Shown piece by piece: positions 1,572-5,919 of a DNA stretch of 64,000 nt (positions are counted from its first letter, which is position 1; each line of letters opens with the position of its first letter). The DNA comes from an uncultured Gammaproteobacteria bacterium (GTDB lineage: Bacteria > Patescibacteriota > Patescibacteriia > UBA1558 > UBA10009): positions 15,951 through 79,950 of the forward strand of contig CAZPMS010000002.1 in NCBI GenBank assembly GCA_964588165.1. The letters are read 5' to 3'. A model generated the notes under the pieces. The model saw nothing but the letters and a program-made list of their open reading frames with translations. It did not search any database and was not told where the DNA came from. The translations under genes and the position numbers were made by a program.

Positions 1572-2435
1572 TTATTTAATATTTAATTTTTTAAAAGCTG
1601 CATTTAAAATCCCTAAAGCATTTTCGTAGCCGACTATTTTTTTAGCCTCATCTTTATTTACCCATTTAGCGTCTTTTACTTCTGGCTCATTGGTGATTTT
1701 TAATTTGTCATCAGTAGTTTCTATTAAAAAGTAGTAGACAGTTTTAGGAACAGGCCTTTTATTTGGCTCTTTTACTTTTATTTCAATACTATCTAAATAA
1801 CCTAAACTTTTTACATTGTTTACTCCGATTTCTTCTTTAATTTCCCTTAGGGCGGCATTTTCTTTGTCCTCATTTTCTTTTATGTGGCCTTTGGGGAAAG
1901 TCCATTTGTTATAGGCATCTAAAATTAAAGCGAATTTATAATTATTATCCTCTTTTTTAAAAACTACGCCACCGGCAGAAAATTCTTTTGGCGGTTCGGT
2001 TTCAAATTCTTTTTTTTCGCCGGTTTTTTGCATGTCTTTAAAAACACTGCCTAAAACTCCGTTAACAAATTTACCAGAAGATTCACCGCCATAAGTTTTT
2101 GCCAACTCAATAGCTTCATTAATAGCAACTTTTGGAGGAATTTCTTTAGAAAATTTTAATTCAAAAATTCCAATACGCAAAACATTTCTATCTACTGTGG
2201 TAATTTGTTCAATTGGCCACTCCGGAGCATATTTTTTTATCATTTTATCAATTTCGGGAACTTTTTCAGCGATACTTTTAATTAGATTTTTAGAAAAATC
2301 TTGATCATCAAAACCCTGTGCAAATTCATCTCGATTATTCTCTAAAAGTTTTTGTAGGTTTTCTTTTTTTTCATTAAAGTCCCATTGGAAAAGACTTTGT
2401 AAAACTAAAGTTCTGGCTAAATGTCTGTTGGACAT
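1572..2435 (-). CDS. nusB: NusB (transcription antitermination factor) N-terminal domain fused to a C-terminal NUDIX hydrolase domain.
   Basis: N-terminus: LARTLVLQSLFQWDF...DRNVLRIGIFEL...KVAINEAIELAKTYGGESSGKFVNGVLGSV, which is NusB-like. C-terminus: GGVVFKK...GHIKENEDKENAALREIKEEIGV, a Nudix box of the form Gx5Ex7REUxEExGU. Confidence 0.8.
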   Translation of the reverse strand: MSNRHLARTLVLQSLFQWDFNEKKENLQKLLENNRDEFAQGFDDQDFSKNLIKSIAEKVPEIDKMIKKYAPEWPIEQITTVDRNVLRIGIFELKFSKEIPPKVAINEAIELAKTYGGESSGKFVNGVLGSVFKDMQKTGEKKEFETEPPKEFSAGGVVFKKEDNNYKFALILDAYNKWTFPKGHIKENEDKENAALREIKEEIGVNNVKSLGYLDSIEIKVKEPNKRPVPKTVYYFLIETTDDKLKITNEPEVKDAKWVNKDEAKKIVGYENALGILNAAFKKLNIK

Positions 2436-2441
2436 AAATTG

Positions 2442-2509
2442 ATGATTAATGATTGCCGCGCCCCGCTTGCGAAGCGAAGCGGAGTCGGGCCGGGGATGAT
2501 TAATGATTG
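2442..2509. repeat. GC-rich repeat family B, copy 2. A 40-bp GC core (2456-2495) is flanked by a perfect 14-bp direct repeat 'atgattaatgattg' (2442-2455 and 2496-2509).
   Basis: The core differs from copy 1 at a single position. It lies 20 bp upstream of the nusB-NUDIX start codon. The flanking direct repeats look like a target-site duplication. Confidence 0.75.
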
Positions 2510-2540
2510 ATTAAGTTAGTTAAAAATCATCGTTTATAGT

Positions 2541-2744
2541 TTATTTCTTTTTCTTTTTATCTAAAGCAGATTTTATTTTAATTGCCTCTTTACCTTTGTA
2601 ATAACCGCATTTAGTGCAAGCTGTGTGCCCTAAAACAGGGTTTTGGCAATTAGAACAAAGTTTAGGCTTGGTTGCTTTTAGAGCGAATTGTGAAGCCCGT
2701 CTTTTTTTAGATGATTTAGTCCGTTTCTGTGTTGGTACACCCAT
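2541..2744 (-). CDS. rpmF: 50S ribosomal protein L32
   Basis: MGVPTQKRTKSSKKRRASQ...CSNCQNPVLGHTACTKCGYYKGKE. This is an L32-like N-terminus with a Cys4 zinc-ribbon, plus a K-rich tail. Confidence 0.8.
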   Translation of the reverse strand: MGVPTQKRTKSSKKRRASQFALKATKPKLCSNCQNPVLGHTACTKCGYYKGKEAIKIKSALDKKKKK

Positions 2745-2777
2745 AAAAAATAGATTAATTGTTAATTTGTTGGTAAT

Positions 2778-2806
2778 AGTATAGGTAAATGAGATCTTTT
2801 TGTCAA
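2778..2806 (-). promoter_or_regulatory. Sigma70-like promoter for rpmF: TTGACA, 17-bp spacer, TATACT.
   Basis: The reverse complement reads ttgacaaaaagatctcatttacctatact. Confidence 0.5.
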
Positions 2807-2865
2807 TTATGTTGATTTTTTTAAAGTTTCCTTTTTTTGCTTATTTAAGGCTTTTTTAAAGGCCT

Positions 2866-3120
2866 TGACAAACTATTTAATTTTTGCTAAGCTTAGAGGT
2901 CATTTTGAAGATTGCCAACTACTCTGGATTCTGCGTCCACGACAAGCATGGGGATTATTGTCAGCGCTTCTTATTTGGCGGCCATTGGTTTGCTCGATAT
3001 GTGCTAGCAATAATTTTCTTGGGCGCAGTATCTAGGGTAGTTTTTTTATTACCCCACGACTCGCTACTTTTAGTCGCCTGCTCTCGGGGACCCCGATATG
3101 AATATTGTTTATGTTAAATT
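2866..3120 (+). ncRNA. Candidate structured noncoding RNA, class unknown. It is a GC-rich, roughly 210-nt unit downstream of a TTGACA-17-TAAGCT promoter (2866-2894).
   Basis: This is a roughly 50% GC island in 35% GC surroundings. It has several stem-loops (gggta/taccc at 3036-3056, cgact/agtcg at 3061-3080, cgggg/ccccg) and a direct repeat 'ccacgac'. The only ORF here (2884..3117) is Cys-rich and not protein-like. Confidence 0.3.
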
Positions 3121-3144
3121 CGTTTATAATTATAGCGGATTTTA

Positions 3145-4998
3145 TTATTCTTCAATAATAATTTCTTCAGTTGAGGTGGCGGCATTAGGGTCCCTGCCTA
3201 TTAAGCATTTGGCTGGCCAAGGAATGTAGTGGCTGGTAAACCTTTCTTCTTCAATATTCCCATCTGGATAGGTAACTTTATAATCAAAATAAGCGTCTGC
3301 TCCGGCATGGGCGCTTTCGGTACAATTTTCTTCTCCCGGTTCCAGCTCATCAGTTTCTATATAAACTGTTTCTCCGGGAGATTTTATATTATAAATGGTT
3401 GGATCAGTTTGTTCGGCAATCCTGCCATCGCTGGTTCCCCAAAAATCAAAATATAAATTATCGCCTTCAATCCGGGCTTGTATTAAAATGTGCTTATCGG
3501 TATCATTTTTAAATTGATAATCCGGCCAGGGATCATAAATGGTAGCGTCTGTTCCGGCCGGTTCGTAATAAACAACTCTGTAAGAATGGTTGCGTCTTTC
3601 TATAACCGGCAGGCCCGAAGCCAAAGTGCTTCTAAAAACGGTAGTGCCAATTTGGCACAAGCCGCCTCCGTATTCAGGGATAGTTTCATCACCTTTAATA
3701 ACCAGCTCCTGCAGATAACCAGCCTCTTTATTTATATCACCAAGGGCCTCTATTAAAGAAAAGATTTCATCGGGTGAAATAAGAAGGCCGTTTAAGCTTT
3801 CAGCGCCTACGGCAATATTGTGCCGGCGGTTTTTAGGGCTGCCCCTAAAATTAGAATGGCCGGTACCTAAAATTTCATTTACACCTAAATCATTAATGCT
3901 GCCGGTAGTAACTTTAGCTTTTGTTTCTTCAATGGTCAGCTCAATTTTAAATGAATTTTCTTCCAGCAAATCATGCTCAATTTTTTCAAAAGATTTATCT
4001 ATATTTAAAGCCAGGCCATCTTGGCTGCCTTGGAATTCAGTTACCCGGCCGTTGGTAATATCAAATTTGGCATCTAAAGTGGGTATATAAATATCGGGTG
4101 CGATATTTTCAGCCAAATAGGCTTTGCTGGTGGAGGCGTCTAAACCTAAAATAATCCCATCTTCCGATTTTTTAAAAACAAACCAGTTTTTAAAAATATT
4201 ATTAGAGATTTCCCAGTTTTTATTTTTACCTATCAGAGTTAAGGTTGAAGTAGAGACCAAATCAGATAATCTGTTAACAGCTATGTCTGTTATTTTATTT
4301 TTTTTAATTAAGGGGTCATCAACTATTAGGTTTAAAACAATTGGCTCTAGTGAAAGATGCTGGACACTATTTAGGGAATCCGAAAGTAATTGTTGATAAT
4401 CAAAAGTGGTTCCGGCTTCTTCTGCCCGTATAGTTATATTTAATTGGCCATCAATAATTGGTACCGCTTCTATTTTAGGGGTGGAGAATTTTTCAAAGTT
4501 ATCCTTTAAAATGGTTAAAAATTCTTCTTGGTCTAATTGAAATTTTACGGGAAAGTTATGGCCGAAAATTAAGGCTTTTAGTTGCTGCCAAAAGTTTCGG
4601 CTGTAACCCTTTTTACGTCCAAATAAATAGGCTTGGTCTACTGTTTCAGCAACATCAAAATAAATAAGTTGGTAAGAAACATCCGGATCTGTAGCTGGCA
4701 GTGTGGGGAAGATAGTTATTTCTTCACCATTAAATTTATATTTTAAGCCATGCTTAATAAATTCATCCACCTGGCTTTGCCAATTTTCGGTGGCCTGAGC
4801 ATGGCTTAATTTTTTTAATTCCTGCTGGTTAATAGTAACGCCGGGAAAAAAGTTATATCTATTGGCTTTGGCATAGCTAAAGGCAAAAATTGCCAAAACC
4901 GTTAAAATAATTAAAAAAATGGTTACAAAAGTAAGTAGCCATTTCATTATTAAAGGAAGCGGGTATTTAGTGTTTATTGGAAGGTTCATCTTCAACAT
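3145..4998 (-). CDS. VanW-domain protein with an N-terminal membrane anchor.
   Basis: N-terminal TM segment (LLTFVTIFLIILTVLAIFAF). C-terminal VanW-like motif: GYLQELVIKGDETIPEYGGGLCQIGTTVFRSTLASGLPVIERRNHSYRV. Confidence 0.7.
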   Translation of the reverse strand: MLKMNLPINTKYPLPLIMKWLLTFVTIFLIILTVLAIFAFSYAKANRYNFFPGVTINQQELKKLSHAQATENWQSQVDEFIKHGLKYKFNGEEITIFPTLPATDPDVSYQLIYFDVAETVDQAYLFGRKKGYSRNFWQQLKALIFGHNFPVKFQLDQEEFLTILKDNFEKFSTPKIEAVPIIDGQLNITIRAEEAGTTFDYQQLLSDSLNSVQHLSLEPIVLNLIVDDPLIKKNKITDIAVNRLSDLVSTSTLTLIGKNKNWEISNNIFKNWFVFKKSEDGIILGLDASTSKAYLAENIAPDIYIPTLDAKFDITNGRVTEFQGSQDGLALNIDKSFEKIEHDLLEENSFKIELTIEETKAKVTTGSINDLGVNEILGTGHSNFRGSPKNRRHNIAVGAESLNGLLISPDEIFSLIEALGDINKEAGYLQELVIKGDETIPEYGGGLCQIGTTVFRSTLASGLPVIERRNHSYRVVYYEPAGTDATIYDPWPDYQFKNDTDKHILIQARIEGDNLYFDFWGTSDGRIAEQTDPTIYNIKSPGETVYIETDELEPGEENCTESAHAGADAYFDYKVTYPDGNIEEERFTSHYIPWPAKCLIGRDPNAATSTEEIIIEE

Positions 4999-5739: not shown

Positions 5740-5919
5740 AAGTTTTACTTTAAAAAGTGTTTATATTATACAACTTTTTTATTCACAGGGCAAATTTTAA
5801 GTGGTGGGTAGGTGGCAGAGAGTAGTTTTTAAGTTGAATATTGACAATTAGAATATTAAATGATAGAGTGTAATATTAATTCTTTTAAAATCCAACAGTT
5901 AAACAGTGAAGGAGGCACC

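Follow-up and report, generated by a model that had tools for sequence, protein, structure and literature searches.

This locus raises the question of whether the gap between the genes for L32 (rpmF) and a VanW protein, in which public gene callers annotate nothing, contains a gene, and what the product of such a gene might do. The original prediction, made on the 64,000-nt stretch of DNA analysed here (the window), placed in that gap a noncoding transcription unit of ~210 nt driven by a TTGACA-17-TAAGCT promoter. In this analysis, we find that the positions of promoter and terminator are kept across ~100 loci and that the fold of the RNA covaries, which bears out the proposed unit. It is nearly certain, in our judgment, that a stand-alone gene for a structured noncoding RNA of ~145 nt lies at about positions 2900-3047 of the forward strand. 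The conserved RNA stops at a T-run (3041-3047), which makes the unit shorter than had been proposed; the predicted transcript, 2900-3047 (+), takes its 5′ end from the position of the −10 element and its 3′ end from this T-run. Other parts of the initial description needed adjustment. The stretch measures 42-47% GC rather than ~50%; it does exceed its intergenic flanks (21-27%), and it equals the adjacent coding DNA. Instead of several stem-loops, we see a single long, irregular hairpin (2917-3042); a second hairpin (3052-3089) follows it but is missing from the related loci compared. The direct repeat ccacgac does exist, at 2937-2943 and 3054-3060, but it had been given too much weight: its first copy is part of an invariant core described below, and since the second copy lies in the nonconserved hairpin and has no counterpart downstream of the RNA in related loci, the repeat is probably due to chance.

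An open reading frame of 77 codons at 2884-3117 could be taken for a small Cys-rich protein gene or for the remnant of a degraded gene, and a pseudogene had been named with the original prediction as one finding that would speak against an RNA gene. We give either reading practically no chance of being correct, and both are excluded by three kinds of evidence: a Pfam search of the open reading frames of the region returned no match even at E ≤ 1, no reading frame is open in more than 36 of 113 homologues, and the substitutions are compensatory in the helices without a codon pattern, with indels of arbitrary length in the tip of the hairpin. Together with the empty gap in the public gene calls, this upholds the noncoding character of the stretch.

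The RNA belongs to a family that has no counterpart in Rfam 15 and is conserved in Falkowbacteria-like Patescibacteria. At the gathering score, the whole window yielded one tRNA only, and at E ≤ 10 the intervals 2400-3250 and 2895-3055 gave no family match beyond spurious ones to snoRNA, sRNA, and lncRNA models; tmRNA, RNase P RNA, and SRP RNA, which could not be matched by eye at the outset, are not matched by these searches either. Rfam searches of 41 related loci (~436 kb) recovered rRNAs, tRNAs, and one tmRNA, and nothing at the RNA element, while a two-module copy of the RNA (see below) gave at E ≤ 10 only matches driven by its terminator hairpin. ARAGORN reported no tRNA or tmRNA at the RNA site; a normal tmRNA is present elsewhere on one RNA-bearing contig (L120, 1288-1674). 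Moreover, the SRP RNA models RF00169 and RF01854 found no match at the RNA element, and the GNRA/AGCA arrangement of SRP domain IV does not occur in the RNA alignments. A literature search on 6S or structured RNAs in CPR/Patescibacteria retrieved nothing relevant.

As judged from its sequence, the promoter of the RNA gene is of the near-consensus sigma-70 type with an extended −10 element. The −35 hexamer TTGACA occupies 2865-2870 (+) and is followed after 17 nt by TAAGCT (2888-2893), which a TG at 2885-2886 and an intervening c extend upstream, so that the promoter foreseen in the original prediction spans 2865-2893. It is also conserved in position: among 133 distinct upstream regions of homologues, TTGACA was found at the homologous position in 99 (exactly in 97), the spacer is 17 nt long in 89 of these 99 detected promoters, and the TG of the TG-n-TAnnnT pattern is present in all 99. 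An automated promoter scan missed this promoter because TAAGCT fits the consensus at only 3 of 6 positions; it is one base away from TAAGAT, the second commonest −10 hexamer among the homologues. At the other end, the run of seven T residues at 3041-3047 forms, with the basal stem of the hairpin, a putative intrinsic terminator, and the consensus of our covariance model of the RNA, R1, likewise ends in a U-run. At least four U residues occur within the nine alignment columns after the basal stem in 81 of 114 copies. Many of the copies without that U-run are modules within two-module RNAs.

The plus strand of the element folds with −71.9 kcal/mol (z = −3.83), a value that none of 200 shuffled sequences equalled, in contrast to the poor fold of the minus strand (z = −0.42). 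Both the minimum free energy and the consensus folds describe the RNA as a single rod-shaped hairpin (2917-3042), and the comparative alignment proposed as a check gives this fold strong support by covariation. In the alignment of 114 sequences, 90.5% of the cells pair, compared with 70.9% after shuffling and 40-56% when the partners are slid against each other; compensatory changes were seen at 37 of 47 pairs, and the covariation score was 0.559 versus 0.208. The basal stem P1, of ~23 bp, is formed by 2917-2939 and 3020-3042 (+), with C2938 and A2939 pairing with U3020 and G3021; as helix 1 of alignment A3, it shows compensatory change in 21 of its 23 pairs, and 92.2% of its cells pair. The upper arm of ~25 bp (2950-2976 and 2995-3013), which is supported by both the minimum free energy fold and covariation, begins with a weak G.U-rich helix, GGGGA, in which the changes at G.U positions are one-sided, to A-U or G-C, with two positions having one unpaired cell each. 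It ends in an apex motif made of GGC (2977-2979) and GCU (2992-2994), whose pairs in the covariation alignment are G2977-U2994 (a G.U pair), G2978-C2993, and C2979-G2992. The G.U and G-C pairs of the apex are invariant in 113 of 113 copies, whereas the third pair covaries, being C-G in 58 copies and U-A in 49. Beyond it lies a variable tip of 12 nt in the window (2980-2991), which ranges from 4 to 81 nt in alignment A3 and is longer still in two loci (L047 and L087). A variant with a truncated upper arm was also observed (L028/L088).

Further invariant positions are found where the two stems meet. A one-sided bulge loops out the decamer CGACAAGCAU (2940-2949), which is identical in 114 of 114 aligned copies, including copies from GTDB genomes that were found through the VanW protein, independently of the RNA sequence, and 17 "module A" copies that were found by the model, independently of the pattern. 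Its bases have a mean unpaired probability of 0.84-0.98 each. The decamer is embedded in a 19-nt core, CACGACAAGCAUGGGGAUU (2938-2956), which was 100% identical over all 19 nt by BLAST in 13 of 20 VanW-anchored GTDB loci, and the inner 15-mer of this core is exact or has one change in 18 of 18 RNA-bearing GTDB loci, although the VanW proteins of those loci are only 39-62% identical to that of the window. The opposite strand, UUUUCUUG (3014-3021), faces the bulge and the G.U helix and is conserved as well (consensus UUucuUG in alignment A3): in alignment A1, T110, T111, and G112 never vary, and conservation of T106-C109 is 90% or higher. All of this strand is predicted to pair, and the pair of C29 with G has a median probability of 0.99. 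The spacing of these parts is nearly constant, the distance from the bulge to the GG of the apex being 22-27 nt in 113 of 114 copies and that from the apex CU to CUUG on the 3′ strand 24-26 nt in 112 of 114. Both the CAAG in the bulge and a split CA...GG are complementary to the invariant CUUG. A helix between CAAG and CUUG, with two bulges instead of one, was considered as an alternative pairing and rejected, as its predicted probability is negligible (mean 0.002) and it is lost in the L006/L007/L048 type, which carries CUG; since the columns concerned are invariant, covariation is unable to prove such a helix.

Of 20 related GTDB genomes (Falkowbacteria and other Patescibacteria), 18 carry a homologue of the RNA, as do at least 120 metagenome contigs; a contig usually has a single copy, and this holds for contigs of up to 976 kb. 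In the window, the covariance model R1 matched 2911-3051 (+) over its full length (84.5 bits, E = 3.6e-22), and this was its only match in the 64 kb. Scores of the model are 55-140 bits on the sense strand versus 26-35 bits on the antisense strand. In two VanW-bearing genomes (L014 and L019), no copy was detected beside VanW, even with the model filters off. Tandem and duplicated copies occur, and there are two-module relatives of ~450 nt that are fused via a conserved linker, CACCUUCC. Phage genomes contained no match to 2800-3150 by BLAST; a scan of viral contigs for the core motif gave 14 matches, and we take these as chance matches that serve as a negative control, since the covariance model recognises none of them. 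The gene neighbors differ between lineages. VanW is the convergent downstream gene in 76 loci and a DAGK-like gene in 32, and in another lineage RNase J lies upstream of the RNA with DAGK and bactofilin downstream. The neighbor clusters comprise VanW, HSP20, DUF3006, L32, NusB-NUDIX, RNase J, DAGK, bactofilin, MBL-fold, endonuclease IV, and metallophosphoesterase, together with one 430-aa protein without a Pfam match, and among them there is no constant partner gene, nor a reverse transcriptase, nuclease, or Cas protein of the kind that would accompany a retron, IscB-TnpB, or CRISPR RNA.

These neighborhoods bear on the possibility that the element acts in cis, be it as a bidirectional terminator or insulator between VanW and rpmF, as an rpmF leader, or as an antisense regulator of the 3′ end of VanW. 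Its place between two minus-strand genes and the resemblance of the basal stem and U-run to a terminator would suit such a role. However, the element is opposite in strand to both neighbors and has its own conserved promoter; the rpmF promoter (2806-2778, minus strand) separates it from rpmF, it stops 98 nt before the VanW stop codon, and the same RNA occurs in unrelated gene contexts in other lineages. A terminator, moreover, needs no sequence invariants. A riboswitch or leader would precede its gene in the same orientation, whereas the gene downstream of this RNA is convergent with it, and the RNA has its own terminator. We therefore regard a cis-acting role as highly improbable. The fact that there is usually one copy per contig, with neighbors that vary between lineages, points instead to an abundant housekeeping RNA that would act in trans, and we think it likely that it does so by binding a partner. 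It appears to present to this partner the looped-out decamer and, at a fixed distance, the G.U/G-C step of the apex.

What this partner might be is a matter on which the conserved parts give several hints. One possibility, to which we attach roughly a one-in-four chance, is that the RNA serves as scaffold or ligand in a housekeeping ribonucleoprotein. Its protein, for example a ribosome-biogenesis or RNA-processing factor, would recognize, on one face of the rod, both the decamer and the G.U/G-C step at a distance of ~25 bp. The bulge, the strand opposite to it, and the apical step are invariant at fixed spacing while the helices and the tip vary, which is typical of a protein footprint, and a G.U pair followed by a G-C pair is a known protein recognition element, as exemplified by the S15 site in 16S helix 22. 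Genes for translation or RNA processing are frequent among the neighbors: the window has rpmF, rnc, and nusB, another lineage has RNase J and rplT, and several loci have rRNA genes within 1.4-6 kb of the RNA. Against this, no protein gene consistently adjoins the RNA and no specific candidate protein emerged, and such a neighborhood is weak evidence in genomes of ~1 Mb that are rich in translation genes.

The invariance of the decamer could also be thought to reflect pairing with another nucleic acid. It is complementary by Watson-Crick pairing at 9 of 10 positions, and at 11 of 12 with the flanks, to the universally conserved 5′ strand of helix 34 of 16S rRNA (E. coli 1055-1064, AUGGUUGUCG), as compared with the 16S gene of an RNA-bearing contig (L043), and pairing with an invariant rRNA segment would account for an unvarying bulge; the RNA would then assist the folding of the 30S head as a chaperone, or regulate it. 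A match of 9 of 10 anywhere in 16S was reached by only 3% of composition-matched shuffles, the core in the sense direction resembles the natural partner strand (ACGUCAA....GCAUGG), and the linker CACCUUCC of the two-module relatives is complementary to GGAAGGUG, directly 5′ of the helix 34 3′ strand. When 23S and 5S are added, however, the support from the decamer becomes marginal (P = 0.10), the linker match by itself is nonsignificant (P = 0.70), and the BLAST E-values of the rRNA matches are 14-44. In the proposed duplex, the invariant central G of the decamer would face G1058, although selection for pairing should have eliminated such a mismatch. Helix 34 is a stable element of mature 30S subunits, and the model leaves the conserved apex and 3′ strand unexplained. 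Duplexes of the bulge with 16S, 23S, 5S, and tmRNA had no advantage in energy over those formed by shuffled bulges, and we know of no trans-acting bacterial RNA that pairs with rRNA in this way. Such pairing is accordingly doubtful in our view. Its more specific form, in which the RNA would be a bacterial counterpart of the snoRNAs that guide pre-rRNA, with the decamer pairing with 16S nt 1054-1065 in Patescibacteria, has a slightly smaller chance still. In that case, the decamer might hold or release the helix 34 strand during assembly of the 30S head, or it might silence 30S subunits, and the two-module relatives would add in CACCUUCC a second rRNA-complementary loop. Patescibacteria have reduced sets of ribosome-assembly factors.

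No better odds, and no worse ones than for 16S pairing in general, can be given to an ordinary base-pairing sRNA that controls translation or stability with the decamer as its mRNA seed, for example for AUGCUUGUCG at a start codon. A conserved single-stranded seed in a stable scaffold followed by a Rho-independent terminator is the usual sRNA layout, and the complement of the seed contains AUG. Yet ~1.06 Mb of Patescibacteria sequence contained no conserved site complementary to the seed besides the antisense strand of the gene itself, and the two 3-mismatch matches to the seed in the window are fewer than expected by chance. Seeds of mRNA-targeting sRNAs are rarely invariant at such evolutionary depth, and the fixed arm length and the invariant apical pairs would be left unexplained.

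The concrete mechanism that we consider most likely, although it is speculative and, on our estimate, still well short of an even chance, is that the RNA serves as a decoy for the sigma-70 RNA polymerase holoenzyme in the manner of 6S RNA. In this mechanism, the basal stem would stand in for downstream DNA, and the decamer together with the meltable G.U helix for the template strand of an open promoter, while the upper arm, with the conserved step ~25 nt away, would imitate the spacer and the −35 region. The CAAG in the bulge might then serve as a second partner for the 3′ CUUG in a rearrangement that releases the polymerase, similar to the "central bubble collapse helix" of Bacillus 6S-1. 6S RNA is ~200 nt long and rod-shaped, with a central single-stranded element on the 5′ strand between two imperfect arms (PMC8876501), and it is described as "exceptionally widespread" (PMC5721685). 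The RNA described here is likewise a rod with a central single-stranded 5′ element whose closing and apical stems are both imperfectly paired, and its gene, which stands alone and is usually present once, has a strong sigma-70 promoter; some lineages have duplicated paralogues, and the gene neighborhood is not fixed across lineages. The arm length fixed at 24-26 nt and the preservation of the bulge-adjacent helix as G.U wobble pairs may also be counted on this side. As to the paralogues, Bacillus carries two 6S RNAs; fused two-module RNAs with a conserved linker have, to our knowledge, no 6S precedent.

Still, several features set it apart from 6S. The predicted bulge is one-sided and 10 nt long, whereas the bubble in the Rfam 6S consensus is two-sided, with ~16 nt on the 5′ and ~13 nt on the 3′ side, and the RNA is only 125-150 nt long. 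The truncated upper arm of the L028/L088 variant also counts against the mechanism, as do the negligible predicted probability of the CAAG/CUUG helix and its loss in the L006/L007/L048 type. Its core of 15-19 nt is invariant across lineages whose VanW proteins are ~40% identical to that of the window, while the 5′ bubble of the Rfam 6S consensus is written in lower case and is little conserved. RF00013 did not match at the gathering score, nor at E ≤ 10 on intervals of 851 nt and 161 nt, in searches for which E. coli ssrS was the positive control (139.8 bits). A resemblance of ACAAG.AUG.GG to the end of the 5′ bubble of E. coli 6S was dismissed as chance, as that stretch is not conserved in the Rfam 6S consensus. 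Since the two-sided bubble that defines 6S is missing from the modeled fold, we do not class the RNA as 6S. In favor of a 6S-like role, scans of ~500 kb of Patescibacteria sequence (~5-15 kb per carrier contig) turned up no 6S, and our literature search found no description of a 6S RNA in this group.

Whatever its partner, the RNA very likely does something central to the cell, since it is usually present in one copy with a near-consensus promoter, and its 15-19-nt core is unchanged while VanW has diverged to ~40% identity. Patescibacteria (CPR) are bacteria with tiny genomes that make up a very large and mostly uncultured share of bacterial diversity and whose RNA biology has hardly been mapped. 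If the RNA is a 6S equivalent, it would fill an apparent gap in these organisms, and a one-sided bubble would be shown to suffice for trapping RNA polymerase; if the pairing with 16S helix 34 is true, it would be the first known bacterial trans-acting guide or chaperone of rRNA. The covariance model R1 is ready for annotating Patescibacteria genomes, and a compact RNA of ~130 nt is well suited to biochemistry.

Among known systems other than 6S, bacterial SRP RNA (4.5S) comes to mind, which is also a housekeeping, single-copy hairpin of ~110-130 nt with conserved asymmetric loops whose longer side is on the 5′ strand. In SRP RNA, however, it is the tip that is conserved (the GNRA tetraloop and the symmetric and asymmetric loops with AGCA), whereas no part of our RNA varies more than the tip (4 to >80 nt), and the conserved loop sits ~25 bp further down. 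The eukaryotic snR30/U17 and U3 snoRNAs, which act as chaperones of pre-rRNA, likewise hold, in an internal loop of a hairpin, an invariant short sequence complementary to conserved small-subunit rRNA; our RNA differs from them in being bacterial and without H/ACA or C/D boxes, and its complementarity is marginal with a central mismatch, so the resemblance is one of layout only. The invariant 5′-GG-3′/5′-CU-3′ step within a helix recalls the S15 recognition motif of 16S helix 22 and of rpsO leaders, but the RNA has no three-way junction, does not lie beside rpsO, and is not a leader, and the G.U/G-C step is too small to imply S15 itself. Lastly, there are the orphan noncoding RNA classes such as raiA, OLE, and the motifs of Weinberg and Breaker. 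Our RNA matches none of those in Rfam 15 and is simpler than they are, being one rod, though a two-module form of ~450 nt exists; like them, it is defined by covariation and conserved nucleotides and is restricted to one lineage.

We show here that the intergenic stretch between rpmF (2541-2744, minus strand) and the VanW/PG_binding_4 gene (3145-4998, minus) encodes a member of a real structured RNA family of Patescibacteria that neither Rfam 15 nor the literature searched had catalogued. The 400 nt from the VanW stop codon to the rpmF start contain no credible ORF and are left empty by public gene callers, in agreement with the original prediction of a non-coding stretch, and a coding region was rejected for the element. 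The observation and the interpretation behind that prediction both stand, while its boundaries (2866-3120) are corrected to an RNA of ~145 nt at ~2900-3047. The promoter it had described is present on the plus strand, with TTGACA at 2865-2870 and, after a 17-nt spacer, TAAGCT at 2888-2893; we add a TG at 2885-2886, so that by its sequence and its position, which is kept across homologues, this is a predicted extended -10 promoter. A consensus promoter scan of the window omitted it because the -10 hexamer matches at only three of six positions. The flanks are AT-rich as described (21-27% GC), but the GC content of the RNA region is 42-47% rather than roughly 50%, and is high relative to the flanks only.

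The plus strand folds as a single long irregular hairpin (2917-3042) followed by a run of seven T (3041-3047, plus). Its energy of -71.9 kcal/mol compares with a shuffle mean of -57.8 (z = -3.83; equalled by 0 of 200 shuffles), and the minus-strand fold is unremarkable (z = -0.42). The several stable stem-loops noticed previously reduce to this main hairpin and a second one (CCCC...GGGG; 3052-3089), which lies immediately 3' of the RNA terminator and holds the second ccacgac repeat. The second hairpin has no U-run on either strand and no counterpart downstream of the RNA in the related loci examined; one possible role is in terminating VanW transcription. The surroundings of the rpmF and VanW stop codons (2530-2577 and 3120-3146) share similar stretches of 12 nt at 92% and 24 nt at 79%, which may reflect a common signal at the 3' end or coincidence in AT-rich sequence.

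A search with the window VanW protein yielded 20 loci among the GTDB species representatives. All but a few, which have other or uninformative labels, are assigned to Candidatus Falkowbacteria or Patescibacteria group, and their VanW proteins are 39-62% identical to that of the window. Eighteen of these loci, two of them with two copies, have an RNA homologue a short way downstream of VanW and convergent with it as in the window, and its 15-19-nt core CACGACAAGCAUGGG(G/A)AUU (2938-2956 in the window) is essentially constant across the 18. Because this retrieval made no use of the RNA sequence, the invariance of the core is not an artefact of selection. The remaining loci, L014 and L019, have VanW orthologues with no RNA copy beside them, even with the filters of the covariance model off, and L014 offers nothing beyond a plain terminator hairpin (5843-5887). 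These genomes may have lost the RNA or may carry it at another site. When metagenome contigs were scanned for exact matches to the core, at least 120 contigs gave one, and among the matches listed the RNA is nearly always present once per contig, including contigs of 702-976 kb. Overall, at least 135 distinct copies were collected. The motif also has 14 matches in viral contigs, none of which is recognised by the covariance model; these are chance matches and serve as a negative control.

The covariance model R1, built from 98 aligned copies (alignment A1), has a single match in the window (2911-3051, plus; 84.5 bits, E = 3.6e-22), and across loci it scores the sense strand at 55-140 bits versus only 26-35 bits for the antisense. 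A clean comparative alignment of 114 copies (A3) backs the fold with both-sided, compensatory changes in 37 of 47 pairs, with standard pairs in 90.5% of cells versus 70.9% in shuffled controls and 40-56% with the partners displaced by 1-3 columns, and with a covariation score of 0.559 versus 0.208 and ~0.1, respectively, figures that lean towards structure because A3 was fitted to the model. Compensatory changes are also visible by eye in the raw sequences, as in CUACUCUGGAU...AUCUAGGGUAG of the window versus GGUUACUUUGAU...AUCAAGGUAAUU of the related locus L118.

The resulting anatomy is well supported. A near-consensus promoter was detected in 99 of 133 distinct upstream regions, with exact TTGACA in 97, a 17-nt spacer in 89 and the TG extension in all 99; many of the regions lacking one belong to second modules of two-module or tandem RNAs. 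After a short, unconserved leader comes the basal stem P1 (~23 bp, one single-base bulge), which, being followed by a U-run, doubles as an intrinsic terminator. The decamer CGACAAGCAU (2940-2949, plus) forms an invariant one-sided bulge with a predicted unpaired probability of 0.84-0.98 per base, between flanking pairs with a median pairing probability of 0.99. The GGGGA/UUUUC helix is maintained as G.U wobbles, and nearly all of its variation consists of changes on one side that leave the pair intact. The upper arm is fixed in length (5' strand 22-27 nt, 3' strand 24-26 nt) and topped by a G.U and a G-C pair invariant in 113 of 113 copies; the next pair covaries, as C-G in 58 copies and U-A in 49 (in the window, G2977.U2994, G2978-C2993 and C2979-G2992, plus strand). 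The hairpin tip ranges from 4 to more than 80 nt. The UUUCUUG of the 3' strand is conserved, and its invariant CUUG has an alternative partner in the CAAG of the decamer bulge, a pairing that covariation cannot test, that is thermodynamically disfavoured and that is missing in a few lineages.

Several variants were found. In one lineage (L011, L017, L022, L055, L060, L062, L067, L089, L092, L117, L120, L121, L128, L136 and L140; for example L055:4725-5200, minus) the RNA is ~430-470 nt long and built from two copies of the module. Module A, with the core CAUAGGAAUU in 9 of 15 aligned copies, is followed by a long-range helix, inside which lie the invariant linker UUGUCACCUUCCA, a GAGA/UCUC hairpin and module B, and finally by a terminator. 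Of the 107 pairs in the consensus fold of this RNA, 51 show compensatory changes, and it has no match in Rfam. Complete tandem direct copies starting ~135 nt apart occur at L040:204-469 and L059:8129-8397, the second copy having AGA in place of AGG before the core. L073 carries, 1.2 kb from an intact copy (4045-4176), a decayed half-copy (~2812-2899, minus) that keeps the 5' half and an intact core and lacks the 3' strand and basal stem. A 104-nt mini-variant with no recognisable promoter of its own (L028:3982-4085, L088:589-692) has an upper arm shortened to ~8 bp and is the sole exception to the fixed bulge-to-apex spacing. Lineage-specific insertions of ~75 nt (L003, L018, L020, L091) or longer (L047, L070, L087) sit exactly at the hairpin tip, past the invariant G.U/G-C step, and resemble expansion segments.

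In line with the original prediction, which had matched the stretch by eye to no motif of tmRNA, RNase P RNA or SRP RNA, the RNA has no match to any Rfam 15 family at gathering score or E<=10, in the window or in the related loci. A normal tmRNA sits elsewhere on one carrier contig. SRP RNA is conserved at its tip, and was rejected because the tip is the most variable part of the Patescibacteria RNA. A cis-regulatory element was rejected in view of the strand opposite to both neighbours and the RNA's own promoter and terminator, and a role as rpmF leader is counter-indicated by the rpmF promoter that intervenes. In other lineages the RNA is preceded by RNase J and followed by a DAGK-like gene and bactofilin, or lies beside endonuclease IV, metallophosphoesterase or MBL-fold genes, and no constant partner gene was found among the neighbours across lineages. 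Together, the strong promoter, usually single copy, deep conservation and changing neighbours argue for a housekeeping RNA that acts in trans. Its invariant decamer and, at a set spacing, the G.U/G-C step have the appearance of a recognition surface.

One conceivable target is 16S rRNA. Comparison of window 2938-2951 with the full 16S gene of the carrier contig L043 (4234-5715, minus) places the decamer against AUGGUUGUCG, with 9 of 10 bases complementary, or 11 of 12 with flanking bases. This segment is the 5' strand of helix 34 (E. coli 1055-1064), which is universally conserved; when read as sense, the core is similar to the natural 3' partner strand of that helix (ACGUCAA....GCAUGG). Composition-matched shuffles equal the decamer match in 3% of cases in 16S and in 10% with 23S and 5S added, the decamer/rRNA duplex energies are no better than those of shuffles, and the invariant central G is mismatched. 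Ribosome-related neighbours (rpmF, rnc and nusB in the window; RNase J and rplT in another lineage; rRNA genes in several lineages) are weakly enriched, which is compatible with this pairing and proves nothing. rRNA genes lie 1.4-6 kb from the RNA gene in several lineages (16S in L043, L056, L064, L073, L081, L105, L109 and L125; 23S and 5S in L048 and L116; 23S in L117), an arrangement that looks more frequent than expected for genomes of an estimated ~1 Mb in which rRNA genes are unlinked. Several of the loci share one conserved synteny and are not independent. We treat helix 34 pairing as a lead rather than a finding, and consider it unlikely.

With regard to the gene neighbourhood in the window, NusB is the N-terminal part of a single 287-aa ORF (1572-2435, minus) with a C-terminal NUDIX hydrolase (Pfam 7.9e-36 and 3.4e-18); in L157, which encodes an identical VanW protein, the gene calls split this stretch into one gene of 216 aa and one of 84 aa. 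The interval between the NusB-NUDIX gene and rpmF holds an exact 15-nt direct repeat, GATGATTAATGATTG (2441-2455 and 2495-2509), on either side of a GC-rich, apparently self-complementary 39-nt segment; a terminator is one possible reading of the whole (2441-2509), the trace of a small insertion another.

The most concrete functional model, possible though rather doubtful, is that of a 6S-like decoy of sigma-70 RNA polymerase. Rod-shaped as well, 6S RNAs have a closing stem that leads into an open central region, where the 5' strand templates the product RNAs, and beyond it an apical arm that makes a -35-like contact (PMC8876501). In the Rfam 6S consensus, read off the E. coli ssrS alignment, the bubble is two-sided (16 + 13 nt) and its 5' strand little conserved, in contrast to the one-sided invariant bulge found here. 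Because of this difference in bulge, the shorter length and the lack of similarity to the 6S covariance model, we do not file the RNA as 6S. In a decoy of this kind, P1 with its 23 bp could stand in for downstream DNA, the decamer together with the meltable G.U helix for the template strand, and the conserved step ~25 nt away for the -35 contact; the alternative CAAG/CUUG pairing resembles a bubble-collapse helix.
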